From a virus (Duplodnaviria > Caudoviricetes), in IMG/VR virus record IMGVR_UViG_3300029288_007050, positions 1 through 64,000 of that record: DNA of 64,000 nucleotides; one strand, written 5' to 3'. The position numbers and the translations under genes were made by a program. Positions 34,873 through 40,161 of this stretch are shown here, piece after piece. The notes beneath the pieces were generated by a model. The model saw only the letters and a list, made by a program, of their open reading frames with translations. It ran no database searches and had not been told where the DNA came from. How positions within the stretch are numbered: the stretch's first letter is position 1; every line of letters begins with the position of its first letter.

Positions 34873-34901
34873 TTTACAAACGCTTCTAAATATGGTATAA
34901 T
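34873..34901 (+). promoter_or_regulatory. sigma70-type promoter heading the Ubl-containing operon
   Basis: TTTACA-N17-TATAAT. Confidence 0.85.
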
Positions 34902-34952
34902 ATATTAAAGCTAAAAATTAAAAGTCGAGAAATTAACGTTCAAAAACAAAAA

Positions 34953-35210
34953 ATGCAAAACATAAAACTAAACGACAAAATCAAATACGTCAAAAGAATA
35001 CTTAGAACACCTTATCATTTCTTTTACGTCCCAATGAAAACGAGTTTGATAGGAATAAAATTTGAAGATAGGAATGGACAGAGTTTTGATTTTACTGGTC
35101 CAAATATGTTCGAAGCAGTTGTGACAGCTGAAAATTACGTCAACGAAGGTCTTAGAGAAGGAAACCTAAAAGAACCCGAACCAAGGAAAAAGAAAGAAGA
35201 AGCGAAATAA
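34953..35210 (+). CDS. hypothetical protein
   Basis: first ORF after promoter. Confidence 0.6.
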   Translation: MQNIKLNDKIKYVKRILRTPYHFFYVPMKTSLIGIKFEDRNGQSFDFTGPNMFEAVVTAENYVNEGLREGNLKEPEPRKKKEEAK

Positions 35211-35220
35211 AAAAGAATCT

Positions 35221-35487
35221 ATGAAGATAAATAAAATTATATGTGACATCTGTGACAAAGAGATAGATGTCAATAATGAAGCTGGTTTAGCGATGTACGA
35301 ACATATAAGTATTCAGCAGAAACTCAATTTAATGCCAGACGTTTTATCGAAAGGAGAAACAAATCCACAGACTAACAAAGAAATAATTAAAGTTTATTTT
35401 GATCTCTGCAATGAATGTGCTTTAGAAACAGAAGCTTTCTTGATAAAGTTAAGAGAAAAGAAAATTAACGATAAAGGTCGAAAATAA
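35221..35487 (+). CDS. Zn-finger protein
   Basis: CDIC...DLCNEC. Confidence 0.65.
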   Translation: MKINKIICDICDKEIDVNNEAGLAMYEHISIQQKLNLMPDVLSKGETNPQTNKEIIKVYFDLCNECALETEAFLIKLREKKINDKGRK

Positions 35488-35511
35488 AAATTAATAAGAC
35501 TAAAAACAAAT

Positions 35512-35781
35512 ATGAGCGTAAAATACATCAAAGAGAATTATCCAGAAACGTATCCAACGATGGACGAAGAAGCTCTAAGATGGATCTTCAAAAATAAGAA
35601 TATTCTTAGAGAAAAATTCAGTAAACGTTTCCCGAAATCGCCGTTTCTATTCGTCGTTCAAATCAAAACTGAGAGAGGCACAGTGTTAGTCAACGACGAA
35701 GCAGAAGTCAAACGAGTTGACAAAGTCGCTTATCTAAGTTGGAAGACTTTAAGACAACTCGGTTGTCCGACAAGTTTTTAG
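35512..35781 (+). CDS. hypothetical protein
   Basis: ORF directly upstream of Ubl. Confidence 0.6.
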   Translation: MSVKYIKENYPETYPTMDEEALRWIFKNKNILREKFSKRFPKSPFLFVVQIKTERGTVLVNDEAEVKRVDKVAYLSWKTLRQLGCPTSF

Positions 35782-35808
35782 TTATTAATTATTAACAAAA
35801 GAAAAAAC

Positions 35809-36036
35809 ATGAAAAAAGTAGACAGAATTAAGATTGTCATCGGGAGATTTGGTTCTGATCCAGAGAAATTAGAAATCTCAAAAGGAGCTACTGTCGAAGA
35901 AGCTCTTGAAGAAGCTGGTATCACTCTAAACTCAACTGAAAAAATCTGGGTTAATGGTGAGAAAGCTACTAGAAAAGACATTCTCGAAAACGATGACAAT
36001 TTATTGTTAGTCAGTCCAAAACAAGCTGGTTTCTAA
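35809..36036 (+). CDS. ubiquitin-like beta-grasp protein (ThiS/MoaD/Ubl)
   Basis: 75 aa; GATVEEAL..AGI, WVNG, LENDD.LLLV, C-terminus KQAG-F. Confidence 0.8.
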   Translation: MKKVDRIKIVIGRFGSDPEKLEISKGATVEEALEEAGITLNSTEKIWVNGEKATRKDILENDDNLLLVSPKQAGF

Positions 36037-36041
36037 TTAGT

Positions 36042-36875
36042 ATGACGAAATTTCGATCTTGGTACAAACAGTATGTCGATATATGCAACAAGAAATACGT
36101 TGCTTATGTAGATGACTTAAAGAAAAAGATAGAAACAGAAAGAACAGCTTTTCAGAAATTGATCGACTACAGAATGAAAACAAACTTGATGCATTCATTA
36201 GAATTAGATGGAAAAATTAACCAGAAGTCAGAACAAATAGCAAATTTAGAGTCTTCTATAATAAAAATTTCTTCTGTAAAAGAAGAAATGGATAACAGAG
36301 TATCAGATCTGAGCGCAGACAAACTATACGAAAAAATATTGAAGCATCCTAAAGTCGACAAGATCGAAATTGAAAATGATGATTTAAACATCATCACGAA
36401 GAAACTTAAAGTAAGGGATAAAAACATAGGTCATTTCAAATTTACATACAACCCGAAAACCGATAGATTGTTTATCAGAAATCTAGAATACGTAGTCGAA
36501 GGAATATTTGACCACTGGCATATAAAATTTGGTGACCCATGTTTAGCTGACTGGAAACCGATATTGTGGAAATACTTAGATACTTTCCAGATTTTCTTTT
36601 TTGTCGATACGTTGATTCATTATCTCTTATTGTCAAATTCGAATCATGCATACAAGCCATTCGAAGAATGGATTAAATTGTTCGAAAAGAAAGAAGAAGT
36701 AAAAAAGCAAGAAATAAATGCGTCAGAACTTTCTGCTGATCAATTAGCTTACGCAGAAATGTATAATGCAGTATATATAAGAGCAAGTGAATATGCAGCA
36801 GGTTGGGTTGACGGCACGACTACAGCTACTACGATGTCATCGTCTTATACGTATTGGGCTGATGCAACTAGTTAA
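36042..36875 (+). CDS. prokaryotic E2-like (UBC-fold) protein with N-terminal coiled coil
   Basis: HWHIKFGDPCL resembles E2 HPN/HI..G.(I/P)CL active-site motif; operon context. Confidence 0.6.
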   Translation: MTKFRSWYKQYVDICNKKYVAYVDDLKKKIETERTAFQKLIDYRMKTNLMHSLELDGKINQKSEQIANLESSIIKISSVKEEMDNRVSDLSADKLYEKILKHPKVDKIEIENDDLNIITKKLKVRDKNIGHFKFTYNPKTDRLFIRNLEYVVEGIFDHWHIKFGDPCLADWKPILWKYLDTFQIFFFVDTLIHYLLLSNSNHAYKPFEEWIKLFEKKEEVKKQEINASELSADQLAYAEMYNAVYIRASEYAAGWVDGTTTATTMSSSYTYWADATS

Positions 36876-36881
36876 TAAAGA

Positions 36882-37110
36882 TATGGAGAGTCTAGAACAA
36901 ATGGAAAAAAGAATAAAAGAAGAAGGAGAAATAAGATGTCCACATTGTGATCATCTGCAATCAGACGATGACGGCGCGTATCCAATAAGTTATCATGGAA
37001 GTGAAGACGGACCAGAAGAAAGATGTTGTGACGAATGCGGAAAAAAGTTTTATGTCAGAGAAAACGTCAGAAGATCTTATGACGTTGCTGCAAATCAAGA
37101 AGATTTATGA
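36882..37110 (+). CDS. Zn-ribbon protein
   Basis: CPHC...CDEC; ATG 36882 preferred. Confidence 0.65.
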
Positions 37111-37667
37111 TTACTCTTAAAATAACTAAAGAAGCATACCTGAAACTTAGATGTTTTACTGAATTATGCGATACAGAAATTTCTGGTTTGGGTAAAGTTA
37201 AAGAAAATGGTGATAGCGAATTCGAGATATATGATATAGAACTTTTTGAACAGAATGCTTCCTTCGGCCACAGTGATTTAGATGAAGAGAAATTAGCTAA
37301 ATTCTTGAATGAAAAGATAATCAAGAAAGAAAACATTAAAGACTATAAAGTTTGGTGGCATTCTCATGCAGACATGAAAGCATATTTTAGCCCTAGAGAC
37401 GATCGAACAATAGATGAATCCACTGAATTTCCATATCTAATATCTATAGTCACGAATAAAAAAGGAGAAGACTTAATTAGATTAGATTTGTATAAACCAT
37501 TAAGACTGACGATTCCACTAAAAATGGAATTGACTGTAGAACTTGATGAACAACTGAAACTAAAATGTCAAAAAGAAATCAAAGAAAAAGTAAAAAAGAG
37601 GTGGTCAATATCAATTTTCGGAGACAAAAAGATATTTTCGATCCCCAGATATTCCAAAAAACTATAA
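37107..37667 (+). CDS. JAB/MPN+ metallopeptidase (deubiquitinase-like)
   Basis: EISG ... WWHSH....FSPRD (E-x(n)-HxH-x7-S-x2-D). Confidence 0.88.
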   Translation: MITLKITKEAYLKLRCFTELCDTEISGLGKVKENGDSEFEIYDIELFEQNASFGHSDLDEEKLAKFLNEKIIKKENIKDYKVWWHSHADMKAYFSPRDDRTIDESTEFPYLISIVTNKKGEDLIRLDLYKPLRLTIPLKMELTVELDEQLKLKCQKEIKEKVKKRWSISIFGDKKIFSIPRYSKKL

Positions 37668-38236
37668 CGATCGTCGGCCTTGGTAATATCGGTTCACAGA
37701 CGGCAGTAGCTTTGACTAGACTTGGACTTAAAGATTTTTATCTCTATGATCACGATAATATTGAAGAGCATAACATTGCTAGCCAAGTTTTCTACAGAAA
37801 TCAGTTGGGAAAACCGAAAACAGAGATGATCAAAAAGACAATGTTTAACATAAACAAGAATGTTTCTGTTTTAGCAGAAAAAAAGAAATATGATGGTGTT
37901 TTTCTCTTCAGTGATATATTGATTATAGCAGTTGATAGCATGAAAGAAAGAGTAAGAATCTGGAAAAATCTCCTTAAAAATAATATTCGTCCAGAACTTA
38001 TTATTGACGGTCGTATGGGTGGACCACAGTTAGAAATCTATACTTGCAGAACGTTAGAAGAATGGGAAGATACGTTTGTAGACAATCCATCTAAAGATCC
38101 ATGCGGAGCTAGGAGCATTTGCTACATTTCTATGATTATCGGTTCGTTGATTGCAAATCAAGTTAAACGATATTTAAAAGCTGAACGATATAAGAAAACG
38201 ATTTTATTTAATATTGATTCTTTGCAACTAATATGA
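37601..38236 (+). CDS. E1-like ThiF-family adenylyltransferase
   Basis: FRRQ, VGLGNIGS, YDHDNIEEHNIASQ, GKPK, AVDS..ER, DGRMG, candidate catalytic Cys DPCG; start GTG 37601 or ATG 37565. Confidence 0.88.
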   Translation: MVNINFRRQKDIFDPQIFQKTITIVGLGNIGSQTAVALTRLGLKDFYLYDHDNIEEHNIASQVFYRNQLGKPKTEMIKKTMFNINKNVSVLAEKKKYDGVFLFSDILIIAVDSMKERVRIWKNLLKNNIRPELIIDGRMGGPQLEIYTCRTLEEWEDTFVDNPSKDPCGARSICYISMIIGSLIANQVKRYLKAERYKKTILFNIDSLQLI

Positions 38237-38571
38237 GAAATATGTCAATAGGATTCATAAAAGATATAGACTTATTACCAAAAGATAACTATTGGTGGCA
38301 ATCTGAGACAGAAAAACGAGATAAAGAAATTCTGAAAATACTCGACAGACTGCATTTCAAGAAAGAATTCATGAGATTAGATATGCAACCAGAACATAGA
38401 TTGATGATTAGGTGCAATATATCGTTTACGAGGAGAGAATTATCAAGAATAAAATCAGTTAGAGAATTTCAAGAAATGTTAAAGCATAAACTCTTAGGCG
38501 CTCAAAAAGAATCAGAAAAATATTTTTCAGATTTAGTCAATAAAATATATGAAAATCATAAAACCTACTAA
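38233..38571 (+). CDS. hypothetical protein
   Basis: ORF coupled to E1 gene. Confidence 0.55.
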   Translation: MRNMSIGFIKDIDLLPKDNYWWQSETEKRDKEILKILDRLHFKKEFMRLDMQPEHRLMIRCNISFTRRELSRIKSVREFQEMLKHKLLGAQKESEKYFSDLVNKIYENHKTY

Positions 38572-40132: not shown

Positions 40133-40161
40133 TTTACAAAGGTTGCAAAGTATGGTATAAT
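40133..40161 (+). promoter_or_regulatory. sigma70-type promoter for Ro60 unit
   Basis: TTTACA-N17-TATAAT. Confidence 0.85.

Follow-up and report, generated by a model that had tools for sequence, protein, structure and literature searches.

Ubiquitin-like conjugation operons and their relation to the phage locus

The conjugation of ubiquitin-like proteins (Ubl) in bacteria has so far been characterized only as a component of host immunity, i.e., in CBASS (Cap2/3), Bil and Bub. In the Bil and Bub operons the JAB peptidase trims the Ubl, which is then transferred by an E1 and an E2 (PMC11601596; 10.1101/2023.09.04.556158). Bil, a bacterial ISG15-like anti-phage system, is formed by BilABCD, is found as types I and II, and corresponds to operon class 6d of Iyer et al. 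2006. Its components are four separate proteins: a Ubl that ends in Gly (in some cases followed by a short overhang), an E2 of the UBC fold whose Cys is catalytic, a JAB and an E1; no E3 is present, and it has been proposed that the E2 chooses its targets directly (PMC11601596). The phage locus described here likewise has the Ubl, an E2-like protein, the JAB and the E1 as separate genes in one operon. However, the E1 of Bil, BilD, is large (IAD-AAD-CYS), whereas the phage E1 is a single adenylation domain of 223 aa; the phage E2-like protein shows no detectable sequence kinship with catalogued E2s and carries in addition a coiled coil of ~100 aa; and Bil lies in host defence islands, whereas the phage cassette lies in the phage backbone.

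The Bub operons (6E/DUF6527) also encode a Ubl, a UBC-like E2, a JAB and a compact E1, and their JAB cuts the precursor and exposes the C-terminus of the Ubl (PMC11601596). In type I Bub the JAB and the E1 form one polypeptide; the phage JAB and E1 genes overlap by 103 nt. In contrast, Bub relies on oxyester (Ser) intermediates and no catalytic Cys is present in BubCD, its peptidase-E1 fusion, whereas the phage has a near-invariant Cys in the E2-like protein and a conserved one in the E1. Furthermore, type I Bub has Ubl-E2 and JAB-E1 fusions and type II an E2-E1 fusion, whereas the phage genes are separate, and the DUF6527/BubE serine protease was not detected in the phage record.

Other systems share only some of these features. 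Like UBA5-UFC1, ThiF and MoeB, the phage system has a single-domain Rossmann E1, in which a Cys lies in the region of the crossover loop and an xRRQ motif in the N-terminal part; unlike the UBA5-type enzymes, it has neither a UFD or UIS extension nor a CxxC zinc site, another residue replaces the Arg of N..RQ, and UFC1 is a poorer structural match to the E2-like domain than the canonical E2s. The PRTRC cassette of plasmids and ICEs (TIGR03734-03742) also combines a ThiF-family E1 with a JAB-like protein on a mobile element; nevertheless, the matches to PRTRC_ThiF (1.3e-7, 31.2 versus 144.75 bits) and PRTRC_A (0.016, 14.7 versus 101.8 bits) are far below the cut-offs, no other PRTRC model matched, none matched the Ubl or the E2-like protein, and no ParB was found among the genes scanned near the cassette. 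In type II CBASS (Cap2/Cap3) the E2-E1 fusion Cap2 has a CD-NTase as its conjugation substrate, whereas the phage has no E2-E1 fusion; the PADLOC E1-E2 models hit only the Rossmann part of its E1, with at most 49.9 bits, and compared with Cap2 this E1 is a minimal single-domain enzyme. The Caldiarchaeum-type ubiquitin operon (Ub, E1, E2, small RING and Rpn11/JAB) resembles the cassette in having five genes, one of which, located between those of the enzymes, encodes a small protein that binds zinc (PMC5654768, PMC3082918); however, the zinc protein of the phage has four Cys, which form a ribbon and not a cross-brace RING, it is missing from most relatives, and no UQ_con or ubiquitin Pfam signal was found in the phage. 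Finally, the ThiS-ThiF and MoaD-MoeB pairs differ from the phage proteins, for which there is no equivalog-level ThiF or MoeB, no Gly-Gly end and no detected partner genes.

Organization of the cassette

The window analysed is a stretch of 64,000 nucleotides (positions 1 to 64,000 of the IMG/VR record IMGVR_UViG_3300029288_007050). The source record, 129 kb long, is that of a virus that encodes PolB, DnaB-primase, GroEL/ES, a tail tube protein and 11 tRNAs; the record is ~83% complete, so the absence of partner genes from it is not conclusive. Positions 35809-38236 of the + strand hold five closely packed genes, within 2.4 kb, whose spacings are +5, +7, -4, -103 and -4 nt. These genes encode the Ubl (35809..36036), the E2-like protein (36042..36875), a zinc ribbon protein (36883..37110), a JAB/JAMM metallopeptidase (37107..37667) and a minimal ThiF-type E1 (37565..38236). 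All the ORFs of the original prediction, a tightly coupled Ubl-E2-Zn ribbon-JAB-E1 series, are present as described, and its assignment of each product held: a 75-aa beta-grasp Ubl ending in ..KQAG-F, a protein with an E2-like motif, a CxxC..CxxC ribbon, a JAB with intact E/HxH/S/D residues, and a ThiF/E1 with GxGxxG and a candidate Cys in DPCG. Three points were corrected: the ribbon is accessory and not core, the E1 is a minimal enzyme with a single domain, and one of its ATP-contacting Arg is replaced.

The neighbours of the cassette are replication, RNA-repair and chaperonin genes of the early/middle arm. Because the cassette sits among these genes, its action during takeover of the cell, and not in virion assembly, is suggested as a possibility.

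The Ubl and the JAB peptidase

The Ubl is a ThiS/MoaD-like beta-grasp protein of 75 aa with the precursor C-terminus ..SPKQAG-F. Taken singly it matches Pfam ThiS only below threshold (0.0025), whereas at the family level all nine members match (9/9, best 1.8e-6). The models nearest to its Atlas model belong to the RnfH, ThiS, SAMP2 and Urm1 families, with TM values of 0.73-0.87. The profile search against PDB sequences gave only chance-level matches, and for this reason the support for the fold is drawn from Pfam and Atlas. The family is invariant through ..SPK[QE]AG, up to AG74, after which follows a hypervariable tail of 1-2 residues (F, L, A, K, I, S, IK or VH); the terminus thus reads AG plus a tail and not GG. 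An invariant AG followed by a variable tail is the pattern of a precursor that is cut after the Gly, an inference made from sequence alone.

The candidate for this cut is the JAB protein of 186 aa. It matches Pfam Prok-JAB (9.4e-6, 25.9 bits, with a cut-off of 25) and, more weakly, the PADLOC JAB models (0.0012-0.012). Its metal-site motif is intact, i.e., E24, H85-S-H87, seven residues, and S95-P-R-D98, and E24, H85, H87, S95 and D98 are kept in 10 aligned relatives, including a distant one (L008). When 50,697 phage records were searched with this protein by tblastn, nothing matched.

The E2-like protein

The protein of 277 aa encoded by the second gene is formed by an N-terminal coiled coil (aa 1-~100), a UBC-like domain (aa ~88-220, nt 36303-36701) that contains H158-W-H160 and Cys167, and a disordered S/T-rich C-terminal tail; aa 157-168 read DHWHIKFGDPCL. 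The UBC-fold check of the product of this gene, proposed with the original prediction, was run and a UBC-like fold was found, as predicted by model. The AF2 pLDDT was 79.8 for the whole protein and 94.4 for the UBC-like domain alone. A fold search (VIA) with the whole model was discarded, given that coiled coils swamped the list, and the domain was modelled alone. With this domain VIA-align searched 48,161 PDB representatives independently of Foldseek, and the top 50 rows were mostly E2/UBC, UEV or RWD folds. The best match was UbcH10 (Z 7.4, rmsd 3.5 A, 120 aa), UBE2S scored Z 7.1, and residues 1-130 of the domain model align to the entire E2 core, in agreement with the layout of solved E2s, in which an N-terminal helix and a four-stranded antiparallel sheet are followed by C-terminal helices; canonical E2s score ~7, whereas UFC1 (Z 4.8) and the Cap2 E2 domain (Z 5.0) are weaker. 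The best matches of Foldseek itself were also E2s, with probabilities up to 0.90 and E-values of 0.045 or worse, and when its matches were re-ranked 169 chains had Z>=5, the rows shown being nearly all E2. Z-scores of 6.5-7.5 are middling on the scale of the tool, and the case for the fold rests instead on the uniformity of the matches and on the motif.

This motif, H158-[WP]-[HA]-[VI]-x5-C167, is kept in a family otherwise diverged to ~20% identity, which comprises 271 representatives at 50% identity. Among the 167 representatives compared, Cys167 is conserved in 99% (164/165) and His158 in 98% (160/164), G130 is present in 164/164, and 68/167 read H-P, like the canonical HPN. Cys167 is position 80 of the domain model, directly ahead of helix 82-93. 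In E2s the catalytic Cys follows an HPN-like motif by ~8-10 residues and directly precedes the first helix after the sheet. Interpolation of the aligned ranges puts Cys167 within ~2-4 residues of the catalytic Cys of UbcH5, Ubc13 and UBE2S. Cys167 would then occupy the place expected for the catalytic Cys of an E2, a placement that depends on these interpolated ranges and on motif similarity, and catalysis is itself inferred.

Models that recognize the members of this family are absent from Pfam, PHROG, PADLOC and NCBIfam. When 90 members were compared with Pfam at E<=1, UQ_con and Prok-E2 were not among the 25 commonest matches, and UQ_con gave nothing across the whole record at the same threshold. 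Likewise, phmmer against PDB gave nothing meaningful for the E2-like protein, tblastn found no match to it in 50,697 phage records, and the Ubl profile found no Ubl-E2 fusions within the family. A 90-sequence profile run against PDB was set aside, given that its only matches were coiled-coil noise due to the N-terminal helices. We infer that the protein belongs to a new viral E2 family absent from profile libraries, for which no thioester has been shown.

The E1 enzyme

The E1 consists of a single adenylation domain of 223 aa; every relative has between 218 and 226 aa. It matches Pfam ThiF (2.4e-17), and its best PDB sequence matches are MccB, UBA5, PaaA and ThiF (1e-8 to 8e-6). The best NCBIfam matches are ThiF models (7.1e-23); nevertheless, the best of them reaches 81.4 bits versus a cut-off of 159, and the scores against ThiF, MoeB and TtuC-type models are far under all cut-offs. 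Its N-terminal FRRQ, its GLGNIG (aa 38-43) and the residues K85 and D124 are all conserved, and the candidate catalytic Cys180, within DPCG (aa 178-181), is found in all aligned relatives, including the E1s of crAss-like and Flavobacterium phages. In place of the ATP-contacting Arg of N..RQ the whole phage clade has Ser or Gly, and the activity of the enzyme cannot be judged from sequence. It also lacks the UFD or Cys domain for E2 recruitment, a rhodanese domain and a CxxC zinc site.

The overlap with the JAB gene, which is in the -1 frame, is kept in nine relatives. A JAB-E1 fusion produced by programmed -1 frameshifting was considered and rejected as a conserved feature; a dnaX-like A_AAA_AAG at 37592 is in the right frame and is absent in at least four relatives. 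The E1 relatives of crAss-like and Flavobacterium phages are 27-30% identical. The same cassette is not inferred for these phages; the flanking proteins of the crAss-like phages fail the E2-like profile (hhalign probabilities <1%).

The zinc ribbon protein

The third gene encodes a protein with the Cys pairs CPHC (aa 19-22) and CDEC (aa 49-52), separated as CPHC-x26-CDEC. Its start is likely the ATG at 36883, which gives 75 aa; an alternative start, the GTG at 36787, would create an 89-nt overlap with the E2-like gene. It matches phrog_6504 (9.7e-8), and three homologues with 61-75% identity keep all four Cys. The ribbon occupies the same position in L021, and is missing between the E2-like and JAB genes in six related contigs (L005, L006, L012, L014, L015 and L018). 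We conclude that it is a lineage-specific accessory, confined to the nearest subclade.

Conservation and distribution

The order Ubl-E2-like-JAB-E1 is shared by about a dozen related metagenomic contigs and one very distant relative. It is found, as far as the contigs reach, in L005, L006, L010, L012, L014-L019 and L021; in the distant L008/L009 the gene order holds, the E2-like protein is 24% identical and the small protein ends in ..EGGK. Because homologues of the cassette genes, at 44-96% identity, keep this order on independent contigs, the genes are real and not chance ORFs. The E2-like proteins are 44-71% identical across the relatives, and the cassette has a fixed backbone position between chaperonin genes. 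The cassette belongs to the backbone that this uncultured lineage of phages conserves; it is inherited vertically and is not a host island.

No relatives of the cassette were found in 185,579 prokaryote genomes, and a scan of IMG/VR with family patterns confirmed none; one of the family alignments (A2) was too diverse for this pattern scanning. In the literature searched no paper on a phage-encoded Ubl/E1/E2/JAB cassette was found, although coverage was incomplete and absence is unproven; a preprint on Asgard viruses describes viral E1 homologues only.

The partners that would point to other functions were also sought in the 129-kb record. ThiG, MoaE, an ATP_bind_3 PP-loop ATPase, rhodanese and MnmA were not detected, nor was any thiamine, molybdopterin or sulfur-relay gene, which extends to the available record the original observation that no thiamine or molybdopterin genes lie nearby. 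SMODS/CD-NTase was not detected in the record either, nor was an integrase, and PF20137 (DUF6527/BubE) was found neither in the record nor as a Pfam match of the cassette proteins.

A proposed phage-run conjugation system

We favour, by a modest margin (probability of about 0.62), the reading that the cassette is a phage-encoded Ubl conjugation system. The evidence is wholly computational, and no thioester, conjugate or target has been shown; every step of the mechanism is inferred from sequence features and the known behaviour of the families. In this proposal the Ubl would be made as a precursor and the JAB would cut off the residue after Gly74. The minimal, probably homodimeric ThiF-type E1 would then adenylate Gly74, and the Ubl may be loaded onto Cys180 of the crossover loop, as occurs with UBA5 and ThiF. 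Subsequently, Cys167 of the UBC-fold protein would receive the Ubl in a thioester linkage. Because no E3 is evident, the variable N-terminal coiled-coil region of this protein is proposed as the probable selector of targets. Finally, the Ubl would be attached through a lysine to a protein of the host or the phage, and the JAB could also undo the mark. In regard to the chemistry of the original prediction, removal of the Phe by the JAB is consistent with the variable tail after AG, an inference given that no trimming has been shown, and activation of the Gly by the E1 with transfer by the E2 is supported as a reading, the thioester remaining undemonstrated. The roles it offered, i.e., takeover, anti-defence, inter-phage competition or tagging for ClpP, remain speculation.

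A bolder version, which we would neither bet on nor against, is that a widespread, uncatalogued and mainly viral UBC-fold family acts together with a ThiS-like tag, a JAB and a minimal E1 to mark host or rival proteins during infection. If true, it would be for prokaryotic viruses what the manipulation of ubiquitin is for eukaryotic ones, and would mirror the Bil, Bub and CBASS defences. A vertically inherited backbone cassette, if complete as read, would mean that bacterial viruses run this chemistry themselves. The pairing of a 223-aa E1 with a separate E2 would also be useful for the study of E1-to-E2 transfer without a UFD or Cys domain.

Alternative explanations

The alternative that survives best keeps the same chemistry and assigns it a defensive purpose, i.e., superinfection exclusion or inter-phage competition in which proteins of rival phages are tagged; the model is the tagging of the phage tail fibre by host Bil systems. 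This is possible, the defensive role being inferred. In its favour, all the characterized bacterial Ubl/E1/E2/JAB operons are tied to anti-phage immunity (PMC11601596; 10.1101/2023.09.04.556158), and defence genes are common in large phages. On the other hand, the cassette is vertically conserved at a fixed backbone position instead of lying in a variable island, the record yielded no integrase and the prokaryote genomes no copies, none of the CapW, CapH and CapP regulators typical of defence operons was seen, and neither the Ubl nor the E2-like protein matches a PADLOC model.

A second alternative, which we regard as unlikely, is conjugation by the E1 alone, or a system in which the E2-like protein is a non-catalytic UEV/RWD-like adaptor or the main substrate. 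Archaeal SAMP systems are not known to need more than an E1. Attachment by an E1 alone has precedents in archaeal SAMPylation and in Thermus TtuB, the phage E1 has no recognizable E2-docking domain, and UEV and RWD folds are also among the structural matches of the E2-like domain. However, non-catalytic UEV and RWD domains lack a Cys such as Cys167, which, together with His158, is kept almost without exception in the diverged E2-like family.

The weakest alternative is a sulfur carrier, in which the E1 would adenylate the Ubl to yield a thiocarboxylate, the sulfur donor for a cofactor, tRNA or modified DNA base, with the JAB limited to maturation of the carrier as in CysO/Mec+; the ThiF matches of the E1 (7.1e-23), the ThiS matches of the Ubl, the 11 tRNAs in the window and the known sulfur clusters with JAB, E1 and ThiS-like genes (PMC1779556) speak for it, but it is very unlikely given the scores against ThiF, MoeB and TtuC-type models (81 versus 159 bits), the failure to detect ThiG, MoaE, ATP_bind_3 PP-loop ATPase, MnmA and rhodanese in the record, an E1 without a rhodanese domain or CxxC zinc site, and a strictly co-inherited UBC-fold protein with an invariant Cys that has no part in known sulfur relays.

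Features upstream of the cassette

The best sigma-70-like promoter match lies at 34873..34901 on the + strand, in the gap before p85; it has an extended -10 and agrees with the consensus in 11/12 positions. It could be the start of the transcription unit that bears the cassette, a possibility that rests on a consensus match only, and the count of promoter-like sites around it is not above the shuffled expectation. A possible associate of the cassette, whose link is unproven, is encoded upstream at 35221..35487 on the + strand; this is an 88-aa CDxC..CxxC protein whose four Cys are invariant in the alignment, and tblastn synteny indicated that it is kept just upstream of the cassette in L005 and L011-L015.

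Gene organization of the cassette

All five open reading frames claimed in the original prediction were present as described (5/5), and the positions of their motifs, in residues and in nucleotides, were verified by script. They lie on the + strand in the following order: the Ubl gene (35809–36036), encoding 75 aa with the C-terminus KQAGF; the E2-like gene (36042–36875), encoding 277 aa with DHWH at residues 157–160 and PCL at 166–168; the zinc ribbon gene (36883–37110; 75 aa, CPHC at 19–22 and CDEC at 49–52); the JAB gene (37107–37667; 186 aa, E24, H85xH87 and S95xxD98); and the E1 gene (37565–38236; 223 aa, GLGNIG at 38–43 and DPCG at 178–181). The spacings along the cassette are +5, +7, −4, −103 and −4 nt. 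For the zinc ribbon, the ATG at 36883 is preferred over the GTG at 36787, since it lies 7 nt downstream of the stop codon before it and yields the same length, 75 aa, as in the homologues.

The JAB and E1 genes overlap by 103 nt (37565–37667), E1 being read in the −1 frame; nine relatives retain an overlap of 85–154 nt, and the ATG of E1 always falls within a conserved K-C-Q of JAB. In the window, a dnaX-like A_AAA_AAG at 37592 would join JAB to E1; no slippery heptamer of any kind is present there in at least four relatives. A 112-aa ORF (38233–38571) shares 4 nt with the E1 stop; a weak counterpart, 30% identical, comes after E1 in the comparison locus L016 and L012 has none, so the ORF is not a core part of the cassette.

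The E2-like protein

The product of 36042–36875 is not recognized by Pfam, NCBIfam, PHROGs or PADLOC, and nothing was recognized among PDB sequences. A profile built from its 18 close homologues and searched against 1.84 billion representatives of 50%-identity clusters revealed a family of 271 representatives at E≤1e-3; none of the 90 members scanned matches a UBC-type Pfam family, and the nearest Atlas clusters are nameless and mostly viral. Gly130 (100%), Cys167 (99%), His158 (98%), Thr119 (98%) and Asn147 (92%) are conserved over 167 representatives, and the family motif is D-H-[WP]-[HA]-[VI]-x2-G-x-P-C-[LFW]-G, which reads H-P, like the canonical HPN, in 68 members. Cys167, the candidate catalytic residue, is nine residues past His158 and, in the model, directly before a helix, an arrangement like that of E2s.

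A model of the whole protein (pLDDT 79.8) combines a helical coiled coil of about 100 residues with an alpha/beta domain and a tail that is disordered. Foldseek placed E2 enzymes on top with this model, at E 0.07 or worse, and re-ranking with VIA was swamped by the coiled coil. Residues 88–250 were modelled alone from a 90-sequence alignment (pLDDT 94.4, pTM 0.88); with this domain, Foldseek again returned E2s first, with E-values of 0.045 or worse and probabilities up to 0.90. In a VIA-align search of 48,161 PDB representatives that did not rely on Foldseek, the top 50 were mostly E2, UEV or RWD folds, including UbcH10 (Z 7.4, rmsd 3.5 Å over 120 residues), UBE2S (7.1), Ubc12 (6.9) and the E2 domain of Cap2 (5.0). 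The re-ranked list holds 169 chains with Z≥5; 50 of these, almost all E2s, align over residues 1–130 of the model to the entire E2 core. Single Z-scores are middling by the guidance of the tool; the case for a UBC fold carries weight because the matches are uniform and the coverage full, and not from any one value. Interpolation of the aligned ranges puts Cys167 within a few residues of the catalytic cysteines of UbcH5, Ubc13 and UBE2S, an approximate placement that is inferred from these ranges and from the similarity of the motifs. The absence of a UBC fold would have refuted the original prediction; the fold is present in the predicted structure, so that this refutation did not materialize. 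The protein is placed, on a modelled fold, in the UBC superfamily, and by sequence in a new, mainly viral family.

Residues 250–277 (36789–36875) form a disordered, Ser/Thr-rich tail (pLDDT <50), in which Trp255 is invariant and Trp272 nearly so among the close homologues; it could serve as a docking peptide for E1 or JAB.

E1, JAB and Ubl

E1 is assigned to Pfam ThiF (2.4e-17) and consists of the adenylation domain alone; among PDB sequences, MccB, UBA5, PaaA and ThiF match it best. Across the aligned relatives, conservation extends to an N-terminal F-[RK]-RQ, the glycine loop, Lys85, Asp124 and Cys180; in the N..RQ ATP-binding motif, Arg is replaced by Ser or Gly throughout the clade. Cys180 putatively occupies the position of the crossover-loop Cys of MoeB and ThiF. 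This cysteine is retained even in the E1s of crAss-like and Flavobacterium phages. These E1s, 27–30% identical to that of the window, occur within a fixed block in crAss-like and Fpv phages (L002:1309–4693, L001 and L003); in the crAss-like L002 the protein before E1 has a JAB-like stretch (L002:2870–2980, E 7e-4), and the other proteins of the block do not match the E2-like profile.

JAB only just clears the Prok-JAB cut-off (25.9 bits versus 25), and its complete JAMM motif is kept in ten relatives. The window Ubl taken singly does not reach the ThiS threshold; each of the nine family members (9/9) matches ThiS, the best at 1.8e-6, and the structures nearest to its ESM Atlas model are RnfH, ThiS, SAMP2 and Urm1 clusters (TM 0.73–0.87). 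The family is invariant up to ..SPK[QE]AG, followed by F, L, A, K, I, S, IK or VH, and more distant cassettes end in ..EGGEGK or ..EGGK. From this sequence pattern, a conserved Gly and then a short hypervariable tail, we infer a precursor that would be cut after Gly.

Conservation and origin of the cassette

When the window proteins were compared by tblastn with all fetched loci, the order Ubl, E2-like, JAB, E1 was constant wherever the contig was long enough (L005, L006, L010, L012, L014–L019 and L021). In the very distant L008/L009, a 511-aa E2-like protein, 24% identical to that of the window, follows an 81-aa protein ending in ..EGGK and precedes JAB and ThiF. L008 (1–1850, 5001–6536) is the most distant cassette examined; the N-terminal region of its E2-like protein is long and unrelated, and on its contig the RNA polymerase beta and beta' genes are fused into one of more than 2,000 codons.

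Only the window and the three relatives closest to it have the zinc ribbon, in every case between E2-like and JAB and with all four Cys invariant (4/4); we regard it as an accessory of one subclade. An 85-aa protein (34953–35210) and an 88-aa protein with an invariant CDxC..CxxC (35221–35487) are kept directly upstream of the cassette in many of the relatives. These proteins may be extra components, such as an adaptor or an E3-like factor, or mere backbone synteny. In several relatives the gene after the cassette encodes GroES, and in one the downstream gene is annotated Cpn10.

No relatives of the E2-like protein were found in prokaryotes (one genome for each of 185,579 species), in phage records, or in IMG/VR beyond the window's own record; every relative comes from a metagenomic contig with the same phage backbone. 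Divergence of the cassette tracks that of the backbone (44–96% identity). The cassette has thus been inherited within the phage lineage and is no recent defence island.

Proposed function and comparison with known systems

We favour, at a probability of roughly 0.62, a conjugation cascade run by the phage, each step being an inference that rests on the analogy to Bil and Bub (PMC11601596; 10.1101/2023.09.04.556158) and to eukaryotic E1/E2 chemistry. JAB would remove the Ubl tail, E1 would adenylate Gly74, perhaps via Cys180, and Ubl would be handed to Cys167 of the E2-like protein and then to a target lysine, with the target picked by the variable N-terminal region of that protein; JAB may additionally deconjugate Ubl.

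Identical chemistry could instead serve phage-borne exclusion of rival phages, which remains possible. Conjugation by E1 only, with the UBC-fold protein as adaptor or substrate, is unlikely, given the invariant Cys and His of that protein. A sulfur carrier is very improbable: ThiG, MoaE, rhodanese, the ATP_bind_3 PP-loop ATPase and MnmA were undetected in the phage record (~83% complete), E1 is sub-threshold for every ThiF/MoeB equivalog, and the UBC-fold partner is strictly co-inherited.

Among known systems, Bil is closest in working to the favoured cascade, with four separate parts and no E3 in both, whereas the cassette falls outside Bil by E1 architecture and genomic setting. In contrast with Bub, no DUF6527 was detected, there are no fusions, and the chemistry would be of Cys instead of Ser; unlike CBASS, there is no E2-E1 fusion and no CD-NTase was detected; and the cassette is below all NCBIfam cut-offs for PRTRC. 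Iyer et al. (2006) described in phage only Ubl and JAB, in lambdoid tail assembly clusters, the E1/E2/JAB operons being cellular, and the viral homologues reported in an Asgard-virus preprint are of E1 only. The full-text literature searched, the coverage of which is incomplete, yielded no account of a phage-encoded Ubl/E1/E2/JAB cassette.

The phage and its genomic setting

The IMG/VR virus record (129,156 bp, about 83% complete by CheckV), whose first 64 kb make up the window, belongs to a deeply divergent, uncultured large phage, whose DNA polymerase is at best 22–25% identical to those of cultured phages; no integrase was detected in it. The window, with a GC content of 30–38%, encodes a DnaB-primase fusion, a family-B DNA polymerase, a GroEL-like chaperonin, an RNA ligase, a Ro60/TROVE protein, a ClpP-family protease and 11 tRNAs, together with what we take to be RtcB and GroES, read from translations. 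The tail tube protein is encoded on the minus-strand arm, and the cassette is located on the plus-strand early/middle arm.

The two best sigma-70-like matches (34873–34901 and 40133–40161; TTTACA-17-TATAAT, extended −10) sit in the only two sizeable gaps of the region and might flank a unit of about 5.2 kb, from the 85-aa protein gene to the gene preceding Ro60, a suggestion resting on consensus matches only; promoter-like sites in the region do not exceed shuffled expectation. Shine-Dalgarno sequences are absent from all ten genes at 34930–38560 (10/10), whose leaders are all A-rich. These leaders and the E1 relatives in crAss-like and Flavobacterium phages tentatively hint at a Bacteroidota-like host.
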